Positions 1,459 through 17,893 of a stretch of 25,942 nucleotides of DNA are shown here, piece by piece. The position numbers and the translations under genes were made by a program. The DNA is from a virus. Its lineage: Duplodnaviria; Heunggongvirae; Uroviricota; Caudoviricetes. The DNA lies in IMG/VR virus record IMGVR_UViG_2563366768_000033. The stretch is one strand, 5' to 3'. Numbering within the stretch: the stretch's first letter is position 1; each line of letters starts with the position of its first letter. Under the pieces are notes generated by a model. That model had not been told where the DNA came from. It made no database searches and saw only the letters and a program-made list of their open reading frames with translations.

Positions 1459-2433
1459 TTACACATCATTAGTACCTTCCTTATTTTTTGACTGGGACAA
1501 ATTTGGGACCGATGGGTTCAGGATCGAGTCTATTTGCCGTGCGTGTTCGGTAAGGTGATTAGGTGCAAGGTGAGCATATCGACGAACCATTTCGATAGAC
1601 TCCCAGCCTCCCATTTCCTGTAACACTGACAACGGGACTCCGGCTTGAACCAGCCAACTTGCCCAGGTGTGTCTCAAGTCGTGAAATCTGAAATCATCAA
1701 TACCAGCCCGTCTCAGCGCCGCTTTCCAGGCTGTGTTTGCGTCATACCGCATCTTCCTTACTGTTGGCGCTTTCGTTCCGTCTGGTTTGGTACAGCTTTC
1801 CTTGTACACAAATACCCAACGGTGATGATTACCGATTTGTTTTTTCAATACGCGACATGCAGTATCATTCAGCGCAACGCCAATTGCGCGGTTTGATTTA
1901 CTCTCTTCCGGGTTTATCCATGCCACCCGGCGCTGCATATCTATTTGTTGCCATTCAAGGTTGATGATGTTCGAGCGTCTTAAGCCTGTTGCCAGTGCAA
2001 ATTCAACAACAGACTTTAATGGCTCCGGACATTCATCAATCAGCCTTTGTGCTTCATGGGGCTCCAGCCAGCGGAGCCGTTTATTCTTTGGTTGAGGCAC
2101 TTTAATAATTGGTGCCTTATCGAGCATTTTCCATTCACGCTCTGCGGCTCTTAGCAGGGCCTTTATAAATGAAAGATGCGTAGCCTTCGTTGCAACGGAC
2201 GCTGGTTTTGGCGTGTATTCTGGAACAGGTTTCCCTTTTTTTCTGCATGCTTCTGCCCTGAGTTTCCAGTTTTCCTCATGACGCCGGTTCGTCATTTTCT
2301 GCATTGCTGAATAAATTTTTGATTCAGTAATGTCTCTTAGTTGCATTCCTGCGAAATGTTGAAGCCAGAATCCGATCTGCTTTCCATTGAGCCTGTTTCT
2401 CTGCGCGACGTTCGCGGCGGCGTGTTTGTGCAT
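1459..2433 (-). CDS. phage tyrosine integrase, lambdoid IntD-like catalytic region; apparently 5'-truncated and fused to lambda N DNA
   Basis: 324-aa ORF with tyrosine-recombinase motifs ([17 protein letters not shown]...MVRRYAHL); adjacent to thrW and transcribed toward it. Its first 19 codons are lambda N sequence read in another frame, so the native arm-binding N-terminus (about 85 aa by comparison with recalled IntD) is missing. Confidence 0.8.
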
Positions 2434-2437
2434 CCAT
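2324..2437 (-). pseudogene. N: lambda N antiterminator, 5' fragment (first 20 codons) ending at a deletion junction
   Basis: Minus-strand frame reads [20 protein letters not shown], the arginine-rich N-terminus of lambda N, then diverges (DRILASTF...) and stops at 2324; located just downstream of nutL/PL as in lambda. Confidence 0.75.
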
Positions 2438-2594
2438 CTGGATTCTCCTGTTAGTTAGCTTTGGTTGTGTGTGGGAGTCGTAGTCCTGAACGAAAACACC
2501 CCGCAATGGCACATTGGCTGCTAATCCGGATTCGCACTTCCGGCCAATGCTTCGTTTCGTATCACACACACCAAAGCCTTCTGCTTTGAATGCT

Positions 2595-2625
2595 GCCCTT
2601 CTTCAGGGCTTAATTTTTAAGAGCA
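2595..2625 (-). promoter_or_regulatory. nutL (boxA 2617-2625, boxB hairpin 2595-2609)
   Basis: Minus strand reads TGCTCTTAAAAATTAAGCCCTGAAGAAGGGCAG, matching lambda nutL boxA-spacer-boxB (GCCCTGAAGAAGGGC stem-loop). Confidence 0.8.
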
Positions 2626-2654
2626 TCACCTTCATGGTGGTTAGTGCGTCCTGC

Positions 2655-2730
2655 TGATGTGCTTAGTATCACCGCTAGTGGTATTTGTGTCAACACCGCC
2701 AGAGGTAATTTATCACCGCAGATGGTTATC
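2655..2730 (-). promoter_or_regulatory. lambda PL promoter with operators OL1 (2667-2683), OL2 (2691-2707), OL3 (2711-2727)
   Basis: TATCACCGCTAGTGGTA, CAACACCGCCAGAGGTA and TATCACCGCAGATGGTT are 17-bp cI operator half-palindromes in lambda OL order; leftward -35 TTGACA (top-strand TGTCAA 2688-2693) and -10 GATACT (top-strand AGTATC 2665-2670). Confidence 0.85.
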
Positions 2731-2808
2731 TGTATGTTTTTTATATAGATTTATTTTTTGCAGGGTTGTGTGGCTTGGGAGGTGATCGAGAGATCAGAAT
2801 TGCGTTGT

Positions 2809-3198
2809 TTAGTGAGTTGCACCTATTAATTTTAAAATAAATACAATTGGTGTTTTTCGAGTTTTTCTTAACTCTTCATGCAGCTCCGTTCTCAGAATAT
2901 ATGATTTTTCGAGTTTGAAATTCTTGCGACCAGGCGTCTTATTGCCAGGCTCAGGAAGTGGAAGGCGTGTTTGAATGTCGAGTGGTGGACAGTCATAGAA
3001 GTAAATTCTATAAAGCTCAAGCGGTTCCCTACGTTCTTGTGATTGACGTTTTCCATTAAGATGGGAAAGAACCATTGACCATATTACTTTCATTATGCAT
3101 TGCGCAGTCAGTTCATGCTCGGCGAAGTGTTTACGATGCGTAGCATGAACACGCTGCATGAAAAAACCCGCATCAATTAAAATTGCTGCTTTCTTCAT
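2809..3198 (-). CDS. hypothetical protein (129 aa) in the slot lambda uses for rexAB between OL and cI; function unknown
   Basis: ORF MKKAAILIDAGFF... on the cI strand directly downstream of cI. Its N-terminus has a hydrophobic-IDxG start reminiscent of NYN/PIN-like nucleases but the motif set is incomplete. The last ~12 codons run into lambda-homologous DNA near 2845, so the 3' end may be junction-derived. Confidence 0.5.
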   Translation of the reverse strand: MKKAAILIDAGFFMQRVHATHRKHFAEHELTAQCIMKVIWSMVLSHLNGKRQSQERREPLELYRIYFYDCPPLDIQTRLPLPEPGNKTPGRKNFKLEKSYILRTELHEELRKTRKTPIVFILKLIGATH

Positions 3199-3325
3199 AA
3201 GAGTCCCAAAAAAATAGCCCAGAGCCGTTATGCAGATATTAACAATTGTCTGCGAACGGGGCTGGGCTTGGTTTAATTAATCTATGCCAAGTTGACTGTG
3301 CCGTCAACATAAAACTTACTTCCTA

Positions 3326-4042
<717 letters not shown>

Positions 4043-4049
4043 TTAAATC

Positions 4050-4116
4050 TATCACCGCAAGGGATAAATATCTAACACCGCGCGTGTTGACTACTTTACC
4101 TCTGGCGGTGATAATG
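4050..4116. promoter_or_regulatory. lambda OR region: OR3 (4050-4066), OR2 (4073-4089), OR1 (4097-4113), PRM and PR (-35 TTGACT 4087-4092, -10 GATAAT 4110-4115)
   Basis: TATCACCGCAAGGGATA / TAACACCGCGCGTGTTG / TACCTCTGGCGGTGATA between divergent cI and cro, followed by AAGGAGG and the cro ATG at 4140. Confidence 0.9.
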
Positions 4117-4130
4117 GTTGCATGTACTAA

Positions 4131-4340
<210 letters not shown>

Positions 4341-4347
4341 ATAACCC

Positions 4348-4379
4348 CGCTCTTACACATTCCAGCCCTGAAAAAGGGC
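4348..4379 (+). promoter_or_regulatory. nutR (boxA CGCTCTTA 4348-4355, boxB GCCCTGAAAAAGGGC 4365-4379)
   Basis: Direct match to the lambda nutR boxA/boxB arrangement between cro and cII. Confidence 0.8.
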
Positions 4380-4458
4380 ATCCAATTAAACCACACCTAT
4401 GGTGTATGCATTTATTTGCATACATTCAATCAATTGTTATCTAAGGAAATACTTACAT

Positions 4459-4752
4459 ATGGTTCGTGCAAACAAACGCAACGAGGCTCTACGAATCGAG
4501 AGTGCGTTGCTTAACAAAATCGCAATGCTTGGAACTGAGAAGACAGCGGAAGCTGTGGGAGTTGATAAGTCGCAGATCAGCAGGTGGAAGAGAGACTGGA
4601 TTCCAAAGTTCTCAATGCTGCTTGCTGTTCTTGAATGGGGGGTCGTTGACGACGACATGGCTCGATTGGCGCGACAAGTTGCTGCGATTCTCACCAATAA
4701 AAAACGCCCGGCGGCAACCGAGCGTTCTGAACAAATCCAGATGGAGTTCTGA
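4459..4752 (+). CDS. cII: CII transcriptional activator (97 aa)
   Basis: ATG at 4459 gives MVRANKRNEALRIESALLNKIAMLGTEKTAEAVGVDKSQISRWKRDWIPKFSMLLAVLEWGVVDDDMARLARQVAAILTNKKRPAATERSEQIQMEF, i.e. lambda CII; the ORF track's upstream extension (4399) is not used. Confidence 0.95.
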   Translation: MVRANKRNEALRIESALLNKIAMLGTEKTAEAVGVDKSQISRWKRDWIPKFSMLLAVLEWGVVDDDMARLARQVAAILTNKKRPAATERSEQIQMEF

Positions 4753-4774
4753 GGTCATTACTGGATCTATCAAC
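4697..4774 (-). ncRNA. oop: oop antisense RNA (about 77 nt) overlapping the cII 3' end
   Basis: Minus strand from 4774 reads GTTGATAGATCCAGTAATGACCTCAGAACTCCATCTGGATTTGTTCAGAACGCTCGGTTGCCGCCGGGCGTTTTTTATT, matching recalled lambda oop with its GC hairpin and U-tract terminator. Confidence 0.75.
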
Positions 4775-4784
4775 AGGAGTCATT

Positions 4785-5707
4785 ATGACAAATACAGCAA
4801 AAATACTCAACTTCGGCAGAGGTAACTTTGCCGGACAGGAGCGTAATGTGGCAGATCTCGATGATGGTTACGCCAGACTATCAAATATGCTGCTTGAGGC
4901 TTATTCGGGCGCAGATCTGACCAAGCGACAGTTTAAAGTGCTGCTTGCCATTCTGCGTAAAACCTATGGGTGGAATAAACCAATGGACAGAATCACCGAT
5001 TCTCAACTTAGCGAGATTACAAAGTTACCTGTCAAACGGTGCAATGAAGCCAAGTTAGAACTCGTCAGAATGAATATTATCAAGCAGCAAGGCGGCATGT
5101 TTGGACCAAATAAAAACATCTCAGAATGGTGTATCCCTCAAAACGAGGGAAAATCCCCTAAAACGAGGGATAAAACATCCCTCAAATTGGGGGATTGCTA
5201 TCCCTCAAATTGGGGGATTGCTATCCCTCAAAACAGGGGGACACAAAAGACACTATTACAAAAGAAAAAAGAAAAGATTATTCGTCCGAGAATTCTGGCG
5301 AATCCTCTGACCAGCCAGAAAACGATCTTTCTGTGGTTAAACCGGATGCTGCAATTCAGAGCGGCAGCAAGTGGGGAACAGCAGAAGACCTGACCGCCGC
5401 AGAGTGGATGTTTGACATGGTGAAGACCATCGCGCCATCAGCCAGAAAACCGAATTTTGCTGGGTGGGCTAACGATATCCGCCTGATGCGTGAACGTGAC
5501 GGACGTAACCACCGCGATATGTGTGTGCTTTTCCGCTGGGCCTGCCAGGACAACTTCTGGTCCGGTAACGTGCTGAGTCCGGCCAAACTCCGCGACAAGT
5601 GGACCCAGCTCGAAATCAACCGTAACAAGCAACAGGCAGGCGTGACAGCCAGCAAACCAAAACTCGACCTGACAAACACTGACTGGATTTACGGGGTGGA
5701 TTTATGA
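4785..5707 (+). pseudogene. O: lambda O replication initiator, frameshifted inside the ori iteron region
   Basis: N-terminal part (MTNTAKILNFGRGNFAG...ISEWCIPQNEGKSPKTRDKTSLKLGDCYPS) is in frame 0 and stops at 5393 after reading through unrelated sequence. The C-terminal O sequence (SKQGDTKDTITKEKRKDYSSENSG...DWIYGVDL) continues in frame +2 to the stop at 5705-5707. The shift coincides with a 23-bp tandem duplication at 5177-5222. Confidence 0.85.
5133..5240. repeat. ori-lambda iterons: five 18-bp O-binding repeats (5133, 5153, 5177, 5200, 5223) where lambda has four; third unit duplicated
   Basis: ATCCCTCAAAACGAGGGA, ATCCCCTAAAACGAGGGA, ATCCCTCAAATTGGGGGA (twice, each with TTGCT spacer = exact 23-bp tandem repeat 5177-5199/5200-5222), ATCCCTCAAAACAGGGGGA, followed by the AT-rich ori segment. 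Confidence 0.85.
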
Positions 5708-6015: not shown

Positions 6016-6725
6016 TGGCGAAAAATGACTTTAAAGCGTTTGCAACTGATCGAAATGCCAATGTTATGTCGCAGGAGGAATGGGAAGCGTTGCCTGCGCT
6101 TATATCCGGATTTACAGCAGGGAAAGCATCCAGTGCGCAAGTCAATAAGGTTATTCGGCAGGCCAGCTTTATTGCTGCAGCTCTGGCCCAGTTTGTAAGT
6201 GATAAAACGCAACGGGATGTGCTTGATAATGGTGATCTGCCCGGTTTTGTTGAATTGCTGGGATCGGGGTTTGCTGTTGAATACCTGAGCCGCAAGAATC
6301 CGTTTGGCGATATCAAATCGGACGGCACGGTGAAAACGGCTCTTCAAAACCTTGGTTTGGGAGAAGCGGCAAAACGGGATGTGGGGACAGGGGAAAATCA
6401 GATACCGGACATGGCCTCTTTTGCCAGTGGTAATGGATGGATGAAATTACCCAACGGGAAAATCCTGCAATATGGTCGTGGTGCGGTTACGCCGACATTA
6501 TCGACGCAAACAATGAGAATTACATTCAGCATCCCTTTCCCCAAAAAAGCGGACTGCGCCATGCTTACTCATTCTGGTGATGGCGGTGCGCCTTTAGGCG
6601 CTGGGCGAGGGTTCGTGATGACTGCAGAAGGCCCAACGTTAACCGGCTTTAATTCTGCTTACAGAACGTCATCAACCAGCGACACGGTATCGATGAATTA
6701 CAGTTGGTGGGCTGTTGGTGAGTAA
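6015..6725 (+). CDS. side tail fibre protein, variable C-terminal segment (StfP-like); alternative start 5997
   Basis: Product [61 protein letters not shown]... is characteristic of e14/Mu/P1-type tail fibre variable regions; followed by a tail-fibre assembly gene and an inverted second set. Confidence 0.7.
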
Positions 6726-6736
6726 TTTTATTCAGG

Positions 6737-7189
6737 GTGATTTATATGGACGAATATGTTTATAGCGCAAGGCATAATGCTTTTTTCCCTGTGGATATGA
6801 TTGATAAATATAAATCAGAGGGATGGGATTTATCAGACGCTAAGGAAGTAAATCAAAATATTATCAGTGAGTTTATGGCTGAACCGCCACAAGGAAAAAT
6901 CCGTATTGCCGGAGATGATGGGCTGCCTGCGTGGGCAGATATTCCTCCACCCACGCATGAAGAGCTTATTGAAATTACTGAATCAGAAAGACAGCTACTA
7001 ATTAACCAGGCCAACGAATACATGAACAGTAAGCAATGGCCCGGTAAAGCGGCTATTGGTCGTCTGAAAGGTGACGAACTGACGCAATATAATTTGTGGC
7101 TGGATTATCTGGACGCACTGGAGCTGGTCGATACTTCCGGTGCGCCAGATATTGAATGGCCTACGCCTCCGGCAGTTCAGGCCAGATGA
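6737..7189 (+). CDS. tail fibre assembly protein (Tfa)
   Basis: 150-aa ORF directly after stf; C-terminus ...LTQYNLWLDYLDALELVDTSGAPDIEWPTPP is the conserved Tfa tail, mirrored by the convergent paralogue at 7161-7754. Confidence 0.8.
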   Translation: MIYMDEYVYSARHNAFFPVDMIDKYKSEGWDLSDAKEVNQNIISEFMAEPPQGKIRIAGDDGLPAWADIPPPTHEELIEITESERQLLINQANEYMNSKQWPGKAAIGRLKGDELTQYNLWLDYLDALELVDTSGAPDIEWPTPPAVQAR

Positions 7190-7754
7190 CATCCGGCGCG
7201 GTGCTGGTATCTGTTGCCGTCACCGCGTCAATGTAATCCAGCACGGCGTTAAGTCGGGTTGTTTCTGCCTGAGTCAGTTTCCGTCCGGCCTGTAACTTCA
7301 GCTGAATCAGACTAATGGAAGCCATTGCTGCATCAATCAGTGATTGGCGCTGTGCTTCTGCCGCGTCTACTGCGGCACTGTGTTGTGCCTCAGTGTCTGT
7401 CACCCATTTCTCACCATCCCATTTATCGTATGGCGTTAACGGTGAAATCGTGACATAACCGTCTTTGATGGCACCGATATAATCCACTGTAACAGCTGCG
7501 CCATTTTCGATTGAGTAAACAGTCTCATTGCGATGGTCTTCTTCATGGCTCCATCCCTTACCTGTAAATACTGCCACTCTTCCCGGAATGTTTTCGCCAG
7601 GGTCAATACCAGTGGAACAGGCGGGCATACTTACGCCAGTATTAATATATTCATCAGACCAGCCCGTATACTCAGATGTTTCAGCATCATAATAAAAACA
7701 ACGCATATCGCCCGGCACTGTAGCCAGCCCATTTTCATCAAAAACAGGTTTCAT
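7161..7754 (-). CDS. tail fibre assembly protein, alternative copy (TfaE-like) in inverted orientation
   Basis: 197-aa ORF MKPVFDENGLATVPGDMRCFYYDAETSEYTGW... ending ...LNAVLDYIDAVTATDTSTAPDVIWPELPEA; convergent and overlapping with the plus-strand tfa, as in G/P invertible segments. Confidence 0.8.
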   Translation of the reverse strand: MKPVFDENGLATVPGDMRCFYYDAETSEYTGWSDEYINTGVSMPACSTGIDPGENIPGRVAVFTGKGWSHEEDHRNETVYSIENGAAVTVDYIGAIKDGYVTISPLTPYDKWDGEKWVTDTEAQHSAAVDAAEAQRQSLIDAAMASISLIQLKLQAGRKLTQAETTRLNAVLDYIDAVTATDTSTAPDVIWPELPEA

Positions 7755-8251
7755 TATTTAGCCCTCACCAGAAAGTTAAATGCAATATTTCGCGGTCTGA
7801 CTGCAACAAAATTCACACCATCACCCACAGAGTTACTGGTGAAATTAAATCGTGAAAATCCTGGCTGATTTCCGGCGATGCCATCATGAAAGTTAATTGC
7901 GTGTCCCGCACCTTCGCCTATATTCCCGGCAAACTGAGAAAAGTTTGTAGCTGCCTGCCAGCTTAATAATTCGCGACCACCGTCTGCACCTCGCCCGTCA
8001 TCCCAGATACGAATGAAATCACCGCGGGCTTCAGGTAATACCAGCGAAGGAAACACTTTCGCCAGCACAGGATAATCAGTGGCAGAGAATTTCGCGCCGT
8101 TGAACTTCAAAAACACCATACAGGACCAGCTGTCGATTACAGTATTTGGCATTGCAGCGGACGGCCAGAAGAACGGAACGCCAATAGCTGGAGCACCTTC
8201 TCCCAAACCAACGTTTATGAAAATGCAGAAATAACGAGCAAATGGCATCAT
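7754..8251 (-). CDS. alternative tail fibre C-terminal segment (StfE-like), currently in the off orientation
   Basis: 165-aa minus-strand ORF abutting the pin upstream region with no constant tail-fibre N-terminal part attached; position equivalent to stfE of e14. Confidence 0.65.
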   Translation of the reverse strand: MMPFARYFCIFINVGLGEGAPAIGVPFFWPSAAMPNTVIDSWSCMVFLKFNGAKFSATDYPVLAKVFPSLVLPEARGDFIRIWDDGRGADGGRELLSWQAATNFSQFAGNIGEGAGHAINFHDGIAGNQPGFSRFNFTSNSVGDGVNFVAVRPRNIAFNFLVRAK

Positions 8252-12192: not shown

Positions 12193-13374
12193 ATGCCTTT
12201 AAACGATATGCAGATTCGCCGCGCTAAGCCTGAAGCTAAAGCCTATACATTTGGAGATGGGCTAGGGTTGTCATTACTTATAGAACCTAATGGAAGCAAG
12301 AGTTGGCGGTTCCGCTATCGCTATGCCGGCAAACCCAAAATGATCTCGCTTGGTGTTTACCCAACGATCACCCTTGCCGATGCTCGTTCCCGTCGTGATG
12401 AAGCTCGAAAACTTGTGGCAGAAGGAAAGAACCCTAGTGAGGTTCGAAAAGAGCAAAAGCTAGCTATGCAAACAGAGTCAGAGAACGCCTTCGAAAAGAT
12501 AGCCAGAGAGTGGCATCAACTTAAATCTGCTAAATGGTCGGCGGGATATGCATCAGACATCATGGAAGCGTTTAAGAACGACATTTTTCCTTATGTCGGA
12601 ACAAGGCCTGTGGGAGAGATTAAACCGCTAGAGCTGCTGAACGTTCTGCGTAAAATTGAGAAACGTGGTGCGTTGGAGAAAATGCGCAAAGTGCGGCAGC
12701 GTTGCTCCGAAGTGTTTCGCTACGCAATTGCAACGGGTAGGGCGGAGTACAATCCTGCGGCTGATCTCTCCAGCGCTCTCGAAGTACACCAATCCAATCA
12801 TTTCCCATTCCTAAAAGCTGATGAGATACCTGATTTTCTACGTGCCTTAGAGGGTTACTCCGGGAGTAAGCTTGTCCAGATAGCCACGAAATTACTGATG
12901 ATTACGGGTGTGAGAACCATCGAATTACGCGCGGCATTATGGCAAGAATTTGATCTGGATAACGCTATTTGGGAAATTCCTGCTGAAAGGATGAAAATGC
13001 GTAGGCCACATCTTGTGCCCTTATCATCTCAAGCGGTAGATTTACTCAATGAACTCAAGATCATGACAGGGAACTATCGTTATGTTTTTCCAGGGCGGAA
13101 CGATCCGAATAGGCCAATGAGCGAAGCGAGTATAAATCAAGCCATTAAGCGTATTGGGTATGGAGGAAAAGTCACTGGACATGGTTTTCGTCATACCCTT
13201 TCTACAATCCTGCATGAGCAAGGTTTTGAGAGTGCTTGGATTGAAATCCAGTTGGCTCATGTAGATAAAAATTCTATTAGGGGGACTTATAACCATGCTC
13301 AATATTTTAGTGGAAGGAAGTCTATGATGGACTGGTACAGTAATTTGATATTTGAAAGACTAAAAAGGAGTTAA
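12193..13374 (+). CDS. P4-family tyrosine integrase
   Basis: From ATG at 12193: MPLNDMQIRRAKPEAKAYTFGDGLGLSLLIEPNGSKSWRFRYRYAGKPKMISLGVYP... (P4/CP4-57-type N-terminus) with C-terminal catalytic region HGFRHTLSTILHEQG...RGTYNH; the ORF track's upstream extension is not used. Confidence 0.9.
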   Translation: MPLNDMQIRRAKPEAKAYTFGDGLGLSLLIEPNGSKSWRFRYRYAGKPKMISLGVYPTITLADARSRRDEARKLVAEGKNPSEVRKEQKLAMQTESENAFEKIAREWHQLKSAKWSAGYASDIMEAFKNDIFPYVGTRPVGEIKPLELLNVLRKIEKRGALEKMRKVRQRCSEVFRYAIATGRAEYNPAADLSSALEVHQSNHFPFLKADEIPDFLRALEGYSGSKLVQIATKLLMITGVRTIELRAALWQEFDLDNAIWEIPAERMKMRRPHLVPLSSQAVDLLNELKIMTGNYRYVFPGRNDPNRPMSEASINQAIKRIGYGGKVTGHGFRHTLSTILHEQGFESAWIEIQLAHVDKNSIRGTYNHAQYFSGRKSMMDWYSNLIFERLKRS

Positions 13375-13377
13375 TTT

Positions 13378-13794
13378 GTGTCTCAACCACTTTCGGAAAT
13401 ATTGACATGGGATGATGAACAATGGGAGGTATTTGTCCATGATTGGCTTATTGTCTGTAAATCAGATGATTACCCGTGGAGCGAACGTTTGGGAGGAGCT
13501 GGAGATAAAGGTAGAGACGTTGTTGGATATAAATCGGATCCTAACGTAGAAGGTTATTCTTGGGATAATTATCAATGCAAACTGTACAAAAAAAGTTTAG
13601 GGTTCTCTGATGTTGTAGTTGAGTTTGGAAAACTTATCTATTTTACTCTGAATGGTGATTATCCCATCCCTCAGAAGTACTTTTTTGTGGCACCCTATGA
13701 TTTATCTACTACATTTTCTAATTTATTGAAAAATAAAAACGAGCTTAAAAAAGCAGTCCTTGATTCATGGGATTCAGCAATTTCAAAAAAATAA
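13378..13794 (+). CDS. cargo gene 1, N-terminal part: Mrr-like PD-(D/E)xK nuclease domain (frame broken at A7 tract 13785-13791)
   Basis: GTG start 7 nt after AAGGAG (13365-13370) and 4 nt after the int stop; product contains GGAGDKGRDVVGY...(17 aa)...YQCKLY, the GxGDxGxD / QxK pattern of Mrr-type nuclease cores. Very AT-rich. Confidence 0.6.
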   Translation: MSQPLSEILTWDDEQWEVFVHDWLIVCKSDDYPWSERLGGAGDKGRDVVGYKSDPNVEGYSWDNYQCKLYKKSLGFSDVVVEFGKLIYFTLNGDYPIPQKYFFVAPYDLSTTFSNLLKNKNELKKAVLDSWDSAISKK

Positions 13795-14384
13795 CTAAAA
13801 AGATTGATATTCCATTAGATGATGAAATAAAAAAATATATTGAGGATTTTGATTTTAGTATTTTTTACTCTCTACCCTTATCATTGATTTTAAATGATAT
13901 TGCAAATACACACCTTTATTTTAAGTACTTTAACGAGCTGTATGTCGTGAGAATCCCTCCAAATGAAATTCCAACATACAATTCAAAAAAAGAGTCTGTA
14001 TATGTTAATGCACTGCTTCAAGCCTATTCAGAGCATGGAAATAAAACTTATAGTTCTTTCTTAGAGCTTGATGATCCATACAGACGACACTTTAATAATA
14101 GTAGAAATGATTTTTATTTTGCATCTTCGCTTGAGGTTTTTGTCCGCGAAGTATTTAAAGATGATGTATTCAAAGCATTGAAATGTTACATTTCATCTTC
14201 AATTGAACCCGTCTTTTATGAAGACCATAATTATGCATTTATTAGGTGTAATGCAGTCTTGAAGCAGGCTGTTCTGACACCAATTGCACATTCAGTACTA
14301 TCAAAAATATGTGAAGCAAATGATAAAAAAGGAATATGCCATCATTTGGTTAATGATGGTGAAGTAATTTGGACGGTGAGATAA
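13767..14384 (+). CDS. cargo gene 1, C-terminal part (unknown domain); probably the continuation of 13378-13794
   Basis: This frame is open from 13764 and overlaps the previous ORF's end across an A7 run; one extra A would join them into a single ORF of about 336 codons. Stop TAA at 14382-14384 overlaps the next ATG. Confidence 0.55.
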   Translation: MGFSNFKKITKKIDIPLDDEIKKYIEDFDFSIFYSLPLSLILNDIANTHLYFKYFNELYVVRIPPNEIPTYNSKKESVYVNALLQAYSEHGNKTYSSFLELDDPYRRHFNNSRNDFYFASSLEVFVREVFKDDVFKALKCYISSSIEPVFYEDHNYAFIRCNAVLKQAVLTPIAHSVLSKICEANDKKGICHHLVNDGEVIWTVR

Positions 14385-14842
14385 TGGTTAGAATTTATAA
14401 TTCAAGTTTAGAAGTGGCATGTCGAATGGCGAAAGTGCTCGTCGCTATTTATCCTTCTTCATTAAGCCTTGAACGGCTTATTTGTTTTGATTTTATTTTA
14501 GTAAATCTTAAGGATTTTTTACCTGAAGAGATTAGTCTTCATCCTCCAATACCCCGTAGAGATGCTCAGTTAGCCCTAAAACGAGAGATTGTTTTAGAAT
14601 CATTGGCTTTGTTGCAAGGCTATGAACTAGCCTCAAAAATTTATACACATCGTGGTTTTGTATATAAAGCTTCTGAAAAAACATATGCATTTACAAATTC
14701 TCTACATAATGAATATGTTGCGCAGATGGAGCATAATATAAATTTGGTGGTTAAGTTATATAGTGATATTCCTGATGAGCAGTTGCAATCAATTATAAAA
14801 AATAAAATTGGCAAATATGATATGGAATTTAATTATGAATGA
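14384..14842 (+). CDS. cargo gene 2: small protein (152 aa), predicted mostly helical; candidate middle component
   Basis: ATG at 14384 overlaps the upstream stop (TAATG); product MVRIYNSSLEVACRMAKVLVAIYPSSLSLERLICFDF...; its stop overlaps the next gene's ATG (ATGAATGA). Confidence 0.6.
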   Translation: MVRIYNSSLEVACRMAKVLVAIYPSSLSLERLICFDFILVNLKDFLPEEISLHPPIPRRDAQLALKREIVLESLALLQGYELASKIYTHRGFVYKASEKTYAFTNSLHNEYVAQMEHNINLVVKLYSDIPDEQLQSIIKNKIGKYDMEFNYE

Positions 14843-15467
14843 CAATTTTTTTACGTTCAGAAAAATAAAGGTAACCGGATTCAATAAATTAGATGCTATA
14901 ATTGAATTTGGTTCTAAATTGACTATTTTATATGGTGGTTCTGACTCTGGAAAAACATACATATATTATTTGATTCGATATTTATTAGGGAGTGAAAAAC
15001 TAAAAAATAAAGATATCGATCATGCTCAAGGTTATGATTTAGCCTATCTGGAATTTAATTTTCAAGGTAGGGTAATGACAATTGAGAGGTCTCTTCAGGA
15101 TAGCGCCCATTACAGATTATATGATTCGAGCATTGAAAATGTTAGTGAAGCTAATCTGTTGATGGTTTTTTCCAAAAGTGCTTCGTCTAAAAAGAGTTTT
15201 TCATCATACTTTTATGGTAGGTTGAATTTCAAAGAGGCTAAAGTAAGAACAAACTTAAGTAATACTCTTCATAAATTTAATCTTAATAATGTTTTTGAAT
15301 TTTTTTGTATTGATGAATTAAGAGTGTTAACTGAGAAGTCGTTAATTCTTTCTGATATTCCTAGCGAGGAGACAAAAAGAAAGTCTGAATTTAAATTCCT
15401 TTTAACTCAGAGAGATGATACTAACTCCTTAGCAGAAAAACCAAATAAAAAAGCAAGATATTTTTAA
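14835..15467 (+). CDS. cargo gene 3, N-terminal head of an SMC/Rad50-like ABC ATPase (Walker A); ends at an in-frame TAA
   Basis: MNDNFFTFRKIKVTGFNKLDAIIEFGSKLTILYGGSDSGKTYIYYLIRYLLG: classic SMC/RecF-type N-terminus with Walker A GGSDSGKT. The ORF stops at TAA 15465-15467 inside a T5A7 tract while the same frame stays open downstream. Confidence 0.7.
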   Translation: MNDNFFTFRKIKVTGFNKLDAIIEFGSKLTILYGGSDSGKTYIYYLIRYLLGSEKLKNKDIDHAQGYDLAYLEFNFQGRVMTIERSLQDSAHYRLYDSSIENVSEANLLMVFSKSASSKKSFSSYFYGRLNFKEAKVRTNLSNTLHKFNLNNVFEFFCIDELRVLTEKSLILSDIPSEETKRKSEFKFLLTQRDDTNSLAEKPNKKARYF

Positions 15468-16088
15468 AAAAATCAAATTGCAAATATTTATGAGGAATTG
15501 AAAGCGCAATTAATTTATCCTGAATATGATCAAGTCATTGTTTCAAGAGAACTTGAGAAAGTAGAGCAAGATATTGAATCATCGAAAGATATATTGAAAG
15601 GTATTGTTGATGCACTTGATGATAAGAAGCAATTATTAAAAGAGTTAAGTGATGAATTATATTCAATCAGTGACAGGGAAAAATACTTATCATTACTCAT
15701 TGAAAGATTTAGTCTTCTTAAAGACCAATACTTTATAGATCTACAAAGAATAGATGTTGTATCACAGGCGAATTTCTATTTAAATAATTTTGCAGATATT
15801 TATTGTGAGTTCTGTAATACACCGCAAAAAAAAGAAAATGAAATATCATATGATGATTGTTTTTTGTCGTGTAATGCAGAAAAATTGAAAATCAAAAGCC
15901 AGCTGAAAGGATTAATTGAATCAATCGGATCTAATGTTCGCGAACATGAATTAATTATGTTAAGAAAAAATGATGTTAATGAAATTTATCAATCAGAAAA
16001 AAGTGATTTTAAGACGTTAGAAGATAAAAATATAAAACAATACATTCATCTCTTGAATCACTTTATGAATATAAAGACAATCTTTTAA
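15468..16088 (+). CDS. cargo gene 3 continued: coiled-coil segment with CxxC...CxxxC zinc-hook-like motif
   Basis: Same frame as 14835-15467, open right after the TAA, with no ATG for about 150 codons (the ORF track uses TTG at 15498). Heptad-like charged/leucine-rich sequence and YCEFCN...(14 aa)...CFLSCN (15804-15872). Confidence 0.55.
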   Translation, partial: KNQIANIYEELKAQLIYPEYDQVIVSRELEKVEQDIESSKDILKGIVDALDDKKQLLKELSDELYSISDREKYLSLLIERFSLLKDQYFIDLQRIDVVSQANFYLNNFADIYCEFCNTPQKKENEISYDDCFLSCNAEKLKIKSQLKGLIESIGSNVREHELIMLRKNDVNEIYQSEKSDFKTLEDKNIKQYIHLLNHFMNIKTIF

Positions 16089-16654
16089 TGGATCACACAA
16101 AACATAGCATTCTATCTTCATTACAAGATAAAGAAGATGATGTTGACGAACTTAAATACTCCGCCGAGGACTTTGACTCCTTAACAGTAGCTGATTTGTA
16201 TGATATAGAAATAGCGATGCAAGACTTTTTGAATGATATAAATTTTGAAAATTCTAAAGATAACAAAGTGCGATTTGACGAAGATACATATGACTTTAAT
16301 ATCAATGGGAAACGCCGAGGAATGTTTGGTAAAGGTACCCGTGCAGTAATGCATGCTATATTTACCATTTGCTTTGCGGAATTTTTATCAAGAAAAGGGA
16401 ATCCATTCATTGGATTTGTTGTGCTTGATAGTCCATTAGTGACGCACTTTGATAAAGATAGAGGGGGTTCTCTATCGGATGTTAATAGCGTCAGTCTCAG
16501 TGATTCATTTTATCACGCATTAATCAAAAGGGACTATAATTTCCAGATTGTAATTCTTGAGAATAAAGGTCCGACGTTCCAAATAAAAATTAATGATGCA
16601 AATAAAATCCATAACTTAAATAAGAATGGAAGCTCTGGTTTTTATCCTGTTTAA
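16088..16654 (+). CDS. cargo gene 3, C-terminal ABC head segment (Walker B-like FIGFVVLDSP), separate ORF or frame-shifted continuation
   Basis: ATG overlaps the upstream stop (TAATG); product contains ...GKGTRAVMHAIFTICFAEFLSRKGNPFIGFVVLDSPLVTHFD, i.e. a run of hydrophobics ending in D as in Walker B, with Ser where the catalytic Glu normally sits. Confidence 0.55.
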   Translation: MDHTKHSILSSLQDKEDDVDELKYSAEDFDSLTVADLYDIEIAMQDFLNDINFENSKDNKVRFDEDTYDFNINGKRRGMFGKGTRAVMHAIFTICFAEFLSRKGNPFIGFVVLDSPLVTHFDKDRGGSLSDVNSVSLSDSFYHALIKRDYNFQIVILENKGPTFQIKINDANKIHNLNKNGSSGFYPV

Positions 16655-17063
16655 TACATTAAAAATATAACTGCTAATTGGGGTGCTCGAAATTATATTT
16701 CGTTTCGAGCGCTCAGTTCATTTCTAAATAATTTGCAAAATTATTTTGGGTACTTTCGCCTCTACACTTCCTTCGGGTGGTTCCACAATAATGGATCTCA
16801 CCGGCGTTTGATATTTTATAATCTAACCCCTTAGCGCGCGCAGCCCCCCACGCCTGCTCGCTTCGCTTAACAGACTGGTTTTCATGCATTCCGCAAATCG
16901 TCTCAGAAGCCACCACACAAGGGCTTTCGCGTCAAAAATGGTGCATGAGAATCATGCGTTTTCATGCGCTATAGACATGCACTCATGCGCTCTCAGGCCA
17001 GCCAGGGAAAAGGCGTAAAAAATCCCAGTACTGGACCGGGATTACGTGGGCTTTTTTTGCTAA

Positions 17064-17336
17064 TCAGACAGGAATTTGCTGACGGCTTGACAGCTTTGAC
17101 GCGGAGCCATAGCGATTGAGAGTTTGCTGTTGTTTTTCCGGCATTTGTGCTTTCTCTGATTCCTGTTCATTGCGCCGGGGCTTCATGATTATCGTATCCA
17201 CACTTTCCAGTGCGGTAAATGTGTAGGAACATTCAAGATTCTGGCACTGATACCATGAGCGTTTAACCGATGGTGCTTCATAGGCGGAGGTTCTGGCGTG
17301 TGCCGTCGTACCGCATTCGGGACATTTAAGTGCCAT
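17064..17336 (-). CDS. Ogr/Delta-family zinc-finger late-gene activator (90 aa)
   Basis: MALKCPECGTTAHARTSAYEAPSVKRSWYQCQNLECSYTFTALESV: CxxC...CxxxxC arrangement and sequence typical of P2 Ogr / P4 Delta. Confidence 0.85.
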   Translation of the reverse strand: MALKCPECGTTAHARTSAYEAPSVKRSWYQCQNLECSYTFTALESVDTIIMKPRRNEQESEKAQMPEKQQQTLNRYGSASKLSSRQQIPV

Positions 17337-17341
17337 TAATA

Positions 17342-17893
17342 TTACTCCTGCATGCCGTTAATGTAATCCAGACGTTGCTGAAAGCGCAGTTGTTGTGCAG
17401 GGGTGTAAGAGCTCTGGCAATCACGAACCATCATGGGGTCAGGCATCACACCGGATTCATCCAGAATCATACGATAATCCCCGGCAATTTCAGGCGGTGT
17501 TATTGCCAGCTGGCGAACCAGAGCATTGCGTAATATACGGGACGCAACGTCAACCCCTCCGCGCCCCTTCAGGAACGGAGCCAGTGCAGATGTCAGGGCT
17601 GCTCCATTCGCCTGCATAAAATTGCTGAGAGCGTCTTCTGTGCAGGCCTCCATCAGTTGATGCTGCGAGTAAATGCATTCGCGCGCAGCACAGTTAATTT
17701 GCCATTTCAGCACATCCAGATGTTCCCGCTGTAATTCGAGCTGTCGAGCATAATCTGCTGGTTTTTCCATGGCAGTGAGGAGTGATTCTATCTGTTGTTC
17801 AACGGCTTTTCGGCTCTCACTATGTCCAGCCCACAGAATACGGGCATTTCTAAAACTGATAAGCGCTTGGTCTGGAGTGACTCGGGCCATCAT
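17342..17893 (-). CDS. Psu-like protein (P4 polarity suppression / capsid decoration family)
   Basis: 183-aa product with ...DVLKWQINCAARECIYSQHQ...NFMQANGAALTSALAPFL, resembling recalled P4 Psu (...VRKWQVNQAAGRYI...DFMQQHGTALAAALAP...); start overlaps the upstream gene's stop (ATGA). Confidence 0.7.
   Translation of the reverse strand: MMARVTPDQALISFRNARILWAGHSESRKAVEQQIESLLTAMEKPADYARQLELQREHLDVLKWQINCAARECIYSQHQLMEACTEDALSNFMQANGAALTSALAPFLKGRGGVDVASRILRNALVRQLAITPPEIAGDYRMILDESGVMPDPMMVRDCQSSYTPAQQLRFQQRLDYINGMQE

Follow-up and report, generated by a model that had tools for sequence, protein, structure and literature searches.

What occupies the rexAB slot of a lambdoid prophage remnant in which no trace of rexA or rexB is found, and is it a working gene? 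We addressed this in the IMG/VR virus record IMGVR_UViG_2563366768_000033, a stretch of 25,942 nucleotides which we call the window. Between PL/OL and a lambda-type cI gene it holds an open reading frame (ORF) of 129 codons. An original prediction, made from the letters alone, took this ORF for a single, complete cargo gene with an exclusion or abortive-infection function. Our analysis points, with high confidence, to a decayed gene instead: the first 116 of the 285 codons of an NYN gene (a moron for a predicted Mg-dependent RNase), followed by 13 codons of non-coding, lambda-like DNA. The features on which this reading rests are listed below; ev099 is an Escherichia phage that carries the intact gene (locus L001).

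2809..3198, minus strand: ORF of 129 aa with ATG start, between PL/OL and lambda-type cI
2851..3198, minus strand: retained codons 1-116, DNA identical to the 5' end of the intact ev099 gene, with only D9 and D69 of the conserved acidic residues
2809..2850, minus strand: 13 junction-derived codons (PIVFILKLIGATH) and the stop, from lambda-like non-coding DNA downstream of the rexB position
2850..2852, no strand: deletion junction from the alignment, 576 bp missing relative to ev099 (L001 3253-3828), 1-nt overlap (T at 2851)
3326..4039, minus strand: context, lambda-type cI repressor of 237 aa, from the ORF list and the lambda alignment
2665..2727, minus strand: context, lambda-like PL promoter and OL1-3 operators at the left edge of the slot, from a promoter scan and the lambda alignment

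The window derives from the cryptic prophage of E. coli O157:H7 known as CP-933H in strain EDL933 and Sp1 in strain Sakai, located at proA-thrW. The window begins within proA; beyond a tRNA-Thr gene (thrW) comes a small lambdoid remnant, which matches E. coli O157:H7 genomes at 99.9-100%. In pairwise alignment, window 3322-5400 corresponded to lambda 37223-39278 (cI, cro, cII and O; 97.4%), and window 2377-2851 to lambda 35300-35771 (5' end of N, nutL, PL/OL and DNA downstream of rexB; 92.0%), with a PL-like promoter at 2693..2665 (minus strand) and equivalents of OL1-3 at about 2668-2727. The immunity region of this prophage is thus lambda's own. The two lambda blocks are separated by 470 bp without a lambda match, situated at the position of rexB-rexA in lambda. 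No alignment was obtained between this slot and lambda 35772-37222 (rexA/rexB), and it contains a single ORF only, which has neither homology to rexA/rexB nor the two-gene organisation with a membrane protein that marks a RexAB operon. The position, strand, ATG and sequence given for the ORF in the original prediction, as well as its assignment to the rexAB slot, were therefore confirmed. Lambda homology resumes at base 2851, so that the last 13 codons and the stop consist of lambda-like DNA; the prediction had rightly noticed this resumption and suspected a junction-derived 3' end, and only its values (near 2845, last 12 codons or so) needed correction.

In a megablast search against phages, ev099 and a second Escherichia phage, 2B8, covered the query in two pieces, with a spacing 576 bp greater than in the window. 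Both phages carry an 858-bp gene in the slot; it immediately follows the repressor gene and is annotated "NYN domain-containing protein". The intact ev099 gene spans L001 3319-4176 (858 nt, 285 codons). Window 2401-2851 aligned with L001 2801-3252 and window 2851-4400 with L001 3829-5378, meaning that, of the missing 576 bp, 510 bp belong to the 3' end of the gene and 66 bp lie downstream. Over its first 348 nt the ORF is identical to the ev099 gene, and divergence starts at nt 349, where the C-terminal PIVFILKLIGATH is a translation of non-coding DNA. The phage family profile phrog_5783 matched the 129-aa ORF with E = 8.2e-42, though only along profile positions 1-108 of 246. Because of this match and the 348 identical nucleotides, the ORF does not represent a chance frame. 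Judged by these alignments it is a fragment of a member of PHROG 5783, a phage family of unknown function, to which no full-length match exists. What had been described as one complete 129-aa gene is accordingly a remnant: 116 codons belong to a larger gene, which was truncated by a deletion of 576 bp. The prediction had itself named a remnant of a larger disrupted gene as the outcome that would overturn it; this is in substance what we found, except that the remnant is a 5' and not a 3' one.

We then asked what was lost. The 285-aa parent scored 36.8 bits against Pfam NYN (gathering cut-off 24.2), and the matching residues 158-205 belong entirely to the deleted part. At E <= 1e-3 the parent had 7035 homologues; among the best 120 listed, most were about 250-300 aa long and carried PF01936. 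Conservation was read from an alignment of 19 diverse family members and the window ORF. Invariant positions of the retained part were D9, R16, R22, Y63-R64, Y68-D69 and P71-P72, while nearly invariant positions of the deleted part included Q160-K161-x-V163-D164, D170, D181, G188-D189-S-D191-F192, D205, D209, H222 and D224. The deletion has therefore removed about 60% of the protein, with most of the NYN core and its acidic GDSDF motif: D9 and D69 are kept in the window ORF, whereas D164, D170, D189 and D191 are absent. A fold comparison of the AlphaFold2 (AF2) model showed the NYN fold in the parent, which superposed over about 142-153 residues on NYN nuclease chains of 150-162 residues (PF01936; the MARF1 NYN domain, 5yaa; the LabA-like VPA0982, 2qip). 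According to the model, the parent appears to carry extra sequence beyond the NYN core and differs from these nucleases by a C-terminal tail that is basic and of low confidence. When the family alignment was used as a profile to search PDB sequences, no meaningful match was obtained, so that among the structures the NYN domain was recognised by fold comparison only. Against PADLOC v2 the parent produced weak, domain-level matches only (HEC-09, E = 2e-4; an NYN candidate, E = 1.4e-3), each covering about 45 residues. Our literature search found no paper on the parent gene.

The window copy compares poorly with this family. Everything after aa 116 is gone, including the region recognised by Pfam, and the rest is a fragment without the defining active site. 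It retains only some of the secondary-structure elements of the parent's AF2 model and does not reach the gathering score of NYN (PF01936). Searches with the 129-aa product retrieved no Pfam family even at E <= 10, no NCBIfam match and no match to known or candidate defence models in PADLOC-DB v2. The NYN-like appearance of the N-terminus, which the prediction had pointed out, thus proved well founded, since the full-length parent passes the Pfam gathering score and has the NYN fold. The incomplete set of catalytic motifs was also correctly observed, and is explained by the loss of about three fifths of the protein with the acidic strand motif. The 129-aa product would be unable to act as an NYN nuclease and is most likely functionless. 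As both the Pfam NYN region and the conserved acidic residues are deleted, an active exclusion or abortive-infection function is unsupported for the window copy. The slot idea itself is right for the parent gene. What remains in the window is a fragment of a pseudogene, both annotated and transcribed, from a known domain family, and for the window this is a case of ordinary prophage decay.

The intact gene is part of a larger unit. In ev099, lambda homology breaks off at the rexB stop (35826) and is picked up again at 37223, and a 988-bp cassette (L001 3312-4299) replaces rexA-rexB exactly. It consists of its own promoter, a structured, terminator-like leader and the NYN gene. Compared with lambda RexA/RexB, the cassette shares the genomic slot (lambda 35827-37222, from the rexB stop to the cI stop), the strand and the expression in the lysogen. 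It differs in having no sequence relationship, one gene instead of two, no membrane protein, and a promoter and terminator-like leader of its own; in the window, moreover, the gene is broken. The prediction had proposed a search for the gene beside cI elsewhere. In most IMG/VR loci with 73-100% identical proteins, a gene for a CI-type (LexA/S24-like) repressor lies immediately upstream on the same strand, and the identity of these repressors to lambda CI varies between 28% and 100%. Stx2a phages carry the identical cassette after a 113-aa ORF and an unrelated 235-aa repressor, and the last 18 nt of lambda cI have been carried along with it. More distant homologues have other locations: in an E. 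albertii prophage the gene lies between Q and the methylase and lysis genes and is oppositely oriented, in Pantoea it is on an island, and in Proteus it is upstream of glmS. The parent is a mobile single-gene moron. It is intact (i.e. the deleted 576-bp segment is present) in 76 of 5426 complete E. coli genomes, as well as in ev099, 2B8 and Stx2a phages. The latter, as read in Stx2_EH0505 (L019; 464-953 and 3491-4348), have an intact NYN cassette beside a non-lambda repressor and a second, internally deleted copy about 2.5 kb away. In the deleted copy, the equivalents of ev099 3191-3437 are joined to those of 4083-4334, which is a second, independent decay of the NYN gene.

The leader and promoter of the cassette are still complete in the window, and leaders of the same kind were located elsewhere:

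3205..3273, minus strand: leader RNA element, imperfect hairpin (3216-3268) and A+U7 (3208-3215), ending 9 nt before the ATG; covariance model R1, 79 bits, E = 2e-18
3279..3307, minus strand: sigma-70-like cassette promoter (TTGACG, 17 nt, TAGATT) from a promoter scan, its -10 box ending 10 nt before the hairpin
Leader examples in other loci: L020 2927-2995; L096 2913-2976; L081 2917-2980

On the minus strand, the order from the cI stop to the ATG is promoter (3307..3279), a spacer of 10 nt, the 53-nt hairpin (3268..3216), A+U7 (3215..3208) and 9 nt including GGGA. Homologues in Pantoea, E. albertii (59% aa identity) and Proteus (47%) are preceded by this layout too, with compensatory changes in the stems. 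Leader loci were gathered from GTDB genomes and IMG/VR. A crude detector found a hairpin with a T-run upstream of the gene in 69 of 116 loci, of which three GC-rich matches from Rhodanobacteraceae were later dropped as unrelated; in most loci that it missed outside this family, the motif was present with an interrupted T-run. Two types of leader were distinguished. As for type A (Gammaproteobacteria), RNAalifold predicted 16 pairs from 21 sequences, 15 of them with double changes. Paired cells amounted to 93.7%, a value reached by none of 500 shuffles, as compared with 78% in the shuffles and 26-43% in slid controls, and model R1 gave a single strong match in each type-A locus, invariably immediately before the gene and on its strand. 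As for type B (Burkholderiales, Halomonas, Acidobacteria, Elusimicrobia and Bacteroidota), the leaders possess an 8-bp outer stem, a variable inner stem and a conserved internal loop, 5'-CAGUA(A/C)/CGA(N)C-3', which may resemble a sarcin-ricin/loop-E module. RNAalifold on a MAFFT alignment of type B yielded only four pairs owing to misaligned stems, and was replaced by a structure given by hand and realignment with the covariance model. The resulting 80.8% of paired cells and 11 of 15 pairs with double changes, reached by 0 of 500 shuffles, come from an alignment fitted to the model and are hence biased towards the structure. Model R2 had 27 matches, all just upstream of the gene except one weak match. 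It also matched a type-A locus with 29.7 bits, suggesting common descent of the two types.

In 17 of 31 loci there is a stringent sigma-70 pattern whose -10 box ends 7-13 nt ahead of the first paired base, as against 0.8% of random positions in these loci. The genes upstream differ between loci or are divergent, so the hairpin does not serve a neighbouring gene as its terminator. Rfam gave no relevant match within window 2600-3500 at E <= 10, and no match above the gathering score at the leader position of 20 homologous loci. Two identifications with named small RNAs were rejected: in its main text, PMC4104026 assigns EcOnc/AgvB/AsxR to Q-PR' moron sites in other prophages and does not mention Sp1, and svsR sits inside the cI of a different phage. 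Possible roles of the leader are those of an attenuator, of a target of autoregulation, of a stabiliser at the 5' end, and of a small RNA that counteracts the nuclease as in type III toxin-antitoxin (TA) systems. In the loci from Rhodanobacteraceae (L034-L077; Rhodanobacter, Dyella and Frateuria) the gene lacks a U-tract leader. In many of them, a TAGAAT/TAAAAT box is followed instead by a GC-rich hairpin whose loop is CCAUCC-like; this hairpin may be a derived form of the leader.

The last of these roles deserves comment. The ancestral cassette shares with type III TA/abortive-infection modules such as ToxIN and AbiQ a constitutive-looking promoter, a short structured RNA with an intrinsic terminator and an endoribonuclease-family gene that needs read-through, and like them it is a compact single module of phages and islands. 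This layout is seen both in the window and in loci of several phyla. The nuclease, however, has the NYN fold and not that of ToxN/AbiQ; the likeness is one of layout only. No tandem repeats were found in window 2700-3400, where the leader is a single hairpin. We therefore propose only tentatively that the intact cassette might be an uncharacterised two-part module, in which a structured RNA of about 60-70 nt gates or neutralises an NYN RNase, resembling type III TA/abortive-infection systems with unrelated parts. In such a module, the RNA would arise from its own promoter, start a few nt before the covarying hairpin and end in the U-tract. The module would be spread over prophage moron slots (post-cI and Q-lysis) and over islands in the chromosomes of Proteobacteria, Acidobacteria, Elusimicrobia and Bacteroidota. 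Going by its position and family, the ancestral intact gene probably was a prophage-borne RNase in a phage-exclusion or toxin-like role, its expression gated by the leader RNA.

Expression was assessed in strand-specific RNA-seq data of EDL933 from 11 conditions (PMC4048457, supplementary file 3). The gene remnant was transcribed in all of them, in the repressed state at 2-23% of the cI level, and its expression tracked cI, unlike that of the PL/PR genes. Expression in the lysogen, as originally predicted, thus holds for the RNA. Simple co-transcription with cI from PRM, modelled on rexAB, is not the whole picture, because a promoter-like site and a terminator-like leader lie between cI and the ORF; the remnant would be transcribed at a low level in the lysogen from the cassette promoter, by PRM read-through past the leader hairpin, or by both. 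In the same data, cI varied between 164 and 2646 reads per kilobase per million across conditions, and cII, O' and int rose by a log fold change of 6.4-7.7 with antibiotics. The lambda-type switch of the prophage remnant (window 3326-4752) appears still to work in EDL933, and this strain should consequently be immune to imm-lambda phages.

How did the deletion arise? The junction coincides with the site of IS629 in other O157:H7 strains. The relevant alleles read as follows, a slash marking the boundary:

Left boundary of the lost segment, intact gene: ...ACAATTGG / TTATGTG...
Right boundary of the lost segment, intact gene: ...TCTTAAGGC / TGTTTTTCGAG...
Window junction allele: ...ACAATTGGTGTTTTTCGAG...

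Strains in which IS629 occupies this very junction retain 4 nt of the parent gene which are absent from the window; the element is not flanked by a target duplication and is present in both orientations at nearly one point. Insertion of an IS into the window allele could not have restored the four bases, so that the allele with the IS, or one immediately preceding it, must be the older. Through the three alleles, the simplest path would then be insertion of IS629 into the NYN gene, an IS629-adjacent deletion and, in the lineage of the window, imprecise excision of IS629 with 4 further nt. IS629-linked deletions and IEE-promoted IS excision are on record in O157 (PMC9943667). With the small deletions and excisions of this kind, the window shares IS629 at the exact junction in sister strains, the lack of a target duplication and minimal microhomology. 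It differs in that the event is inferred from three alleles and not observed, and in that IEE end joining in vitro required at least 4 bp of homology, exceeding that at the window junction. The opposite-orientation allele of the SS17/TW14359 type (flanks ...GGCTGTT / IS / ATATGGCTGTT...) was not derivable from the other alleles by a simple step. A less probable course, to which we would still give some weight, is that the 576 bp were lost by a simple microhomology deletion unrelated to IS629, and that the IS later inserted independently at a hot spot made by the junction. The 1-2 nt of microhomology (GG/T) and the target preference suggested by two orientations at nearly one point speak for it; the order of alleles imposed by the four bases speaks for the path through IS629, and the choice concerns only the origin of the deletion.

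The distribution of these alleles also bears on whether the 129-aa product has been kept for a purpose. The IS-free junction was found in 108 of 5426 complete E. coli genomes, and those carriers sampled from the spread listing that had a serotype label were all O157 or O157:H7, EDL933 included; other O157:H7 genomes match one side of the junction only, as expected of IS-bearing alleles. The exact 129-aa sequence occurs on at least 999 contigs, and its 90% cluster includes variants of 108-131 aa with differing C-terminal tails. One could argue from this abundance, from the open and transcribed frame, from the intact promoter and leader and from the intact gene carried by Stx2a phages found in O157:H7, that the 116-aa N-terminal fragment was retained for a new role, such as binding of the leader RNA or a dominant-negative action on the intact NYN protein of those phages. 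We consider this improbable. The wide occurrence of the sequence is accounted for by clonal descent; on a rough reading of the spread listing, about as many other complete O157:H7 genomes have IS629 at the junction as are IS-free, and the differing tails of the IS629 alleles mean that this particular 129-aa product is not conserved. The partial set of secondary-structure elements likewise argues against it. More improbable still is the view first proposed, that the ORF is a complete small PIN/NYN-like nuclease and the exclusion cargo of the slot: its position, the NYN-like N-terminal motif with D9 and the label 'PIN domain-containing protein' in recent RefSeq records may seem to favour it, but the alignment already contradicts it. 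Decay of a larger NYN gene remains the reading we adopt.

The annotation of the gene has been affected as well. In locus L006 (NZ_OZ501598.1, 2567-3424), the intact 858-bp gene, identical to that of ev099, is split in two by the annotation pipeline PGAP: one part is called 'NYN domain-containing protein' (146 aa), the other is a pseudo feature labelled 'PIN domain-containing protein, missing C-terminus'. Two features under the gene are likewise shown in the other RefSeq E. coli genomes listed with an intact copy. Apparently, the abundant truncated O157 protein serves as the PGAP reference that causes this split.

Several other features of the window were noted. The prophage has shrunk to about 10 kb around the lambda immunity region. 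Of lambda N only the 5' part survives (2324-2569, minus strand), running into a 5'-truncated integrase gene (1459-2433, minus strand), and O carries a frameshift and is joined to P2-like tail-fibre genes. The tail-fibre segment at 6347-8216, bounded by 20-nt inverted repeats (6347-6366 and 8197-8216) and lying beside pinE, is inverted relative to ATCC 35150; it is a Pin-type invertible host-range switch in the other orientation. A P4-like satellite prophage (integrase, Psu, Delta/Ogr-like, Icd-like and primase-helicase) extends over about 12193-23278. Between its integrase and the psu/delta genes it carries an annotated ABC-three-component system and an AAA ATPase (about 13378-15467), at a position that is a defence hot spot of P4-like elements.

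For the slot itself, the analysis removes a false lead, as the supposed 129-aa exclusion gene is a broken gene, and the RefSeq labels "hypothetical protein" and "PIN domain-containing protein" conceal a pseudogene. The window offers a clean, datable case in which IS629 is linked to the erosion of an accessory gene of an O157:H7 prophage. With the nuclease half of the cassette destroyed and the RNA half intact, O157:H7 may express an orphan small RNA from 3205-3273 (minus strand). The parent cassette, which combines a very common NYN family (>7000 homologues), exact substitution of rexAB and a leader absent from Rfam, is a candidate for prophage RNA-level defence or toxin control.
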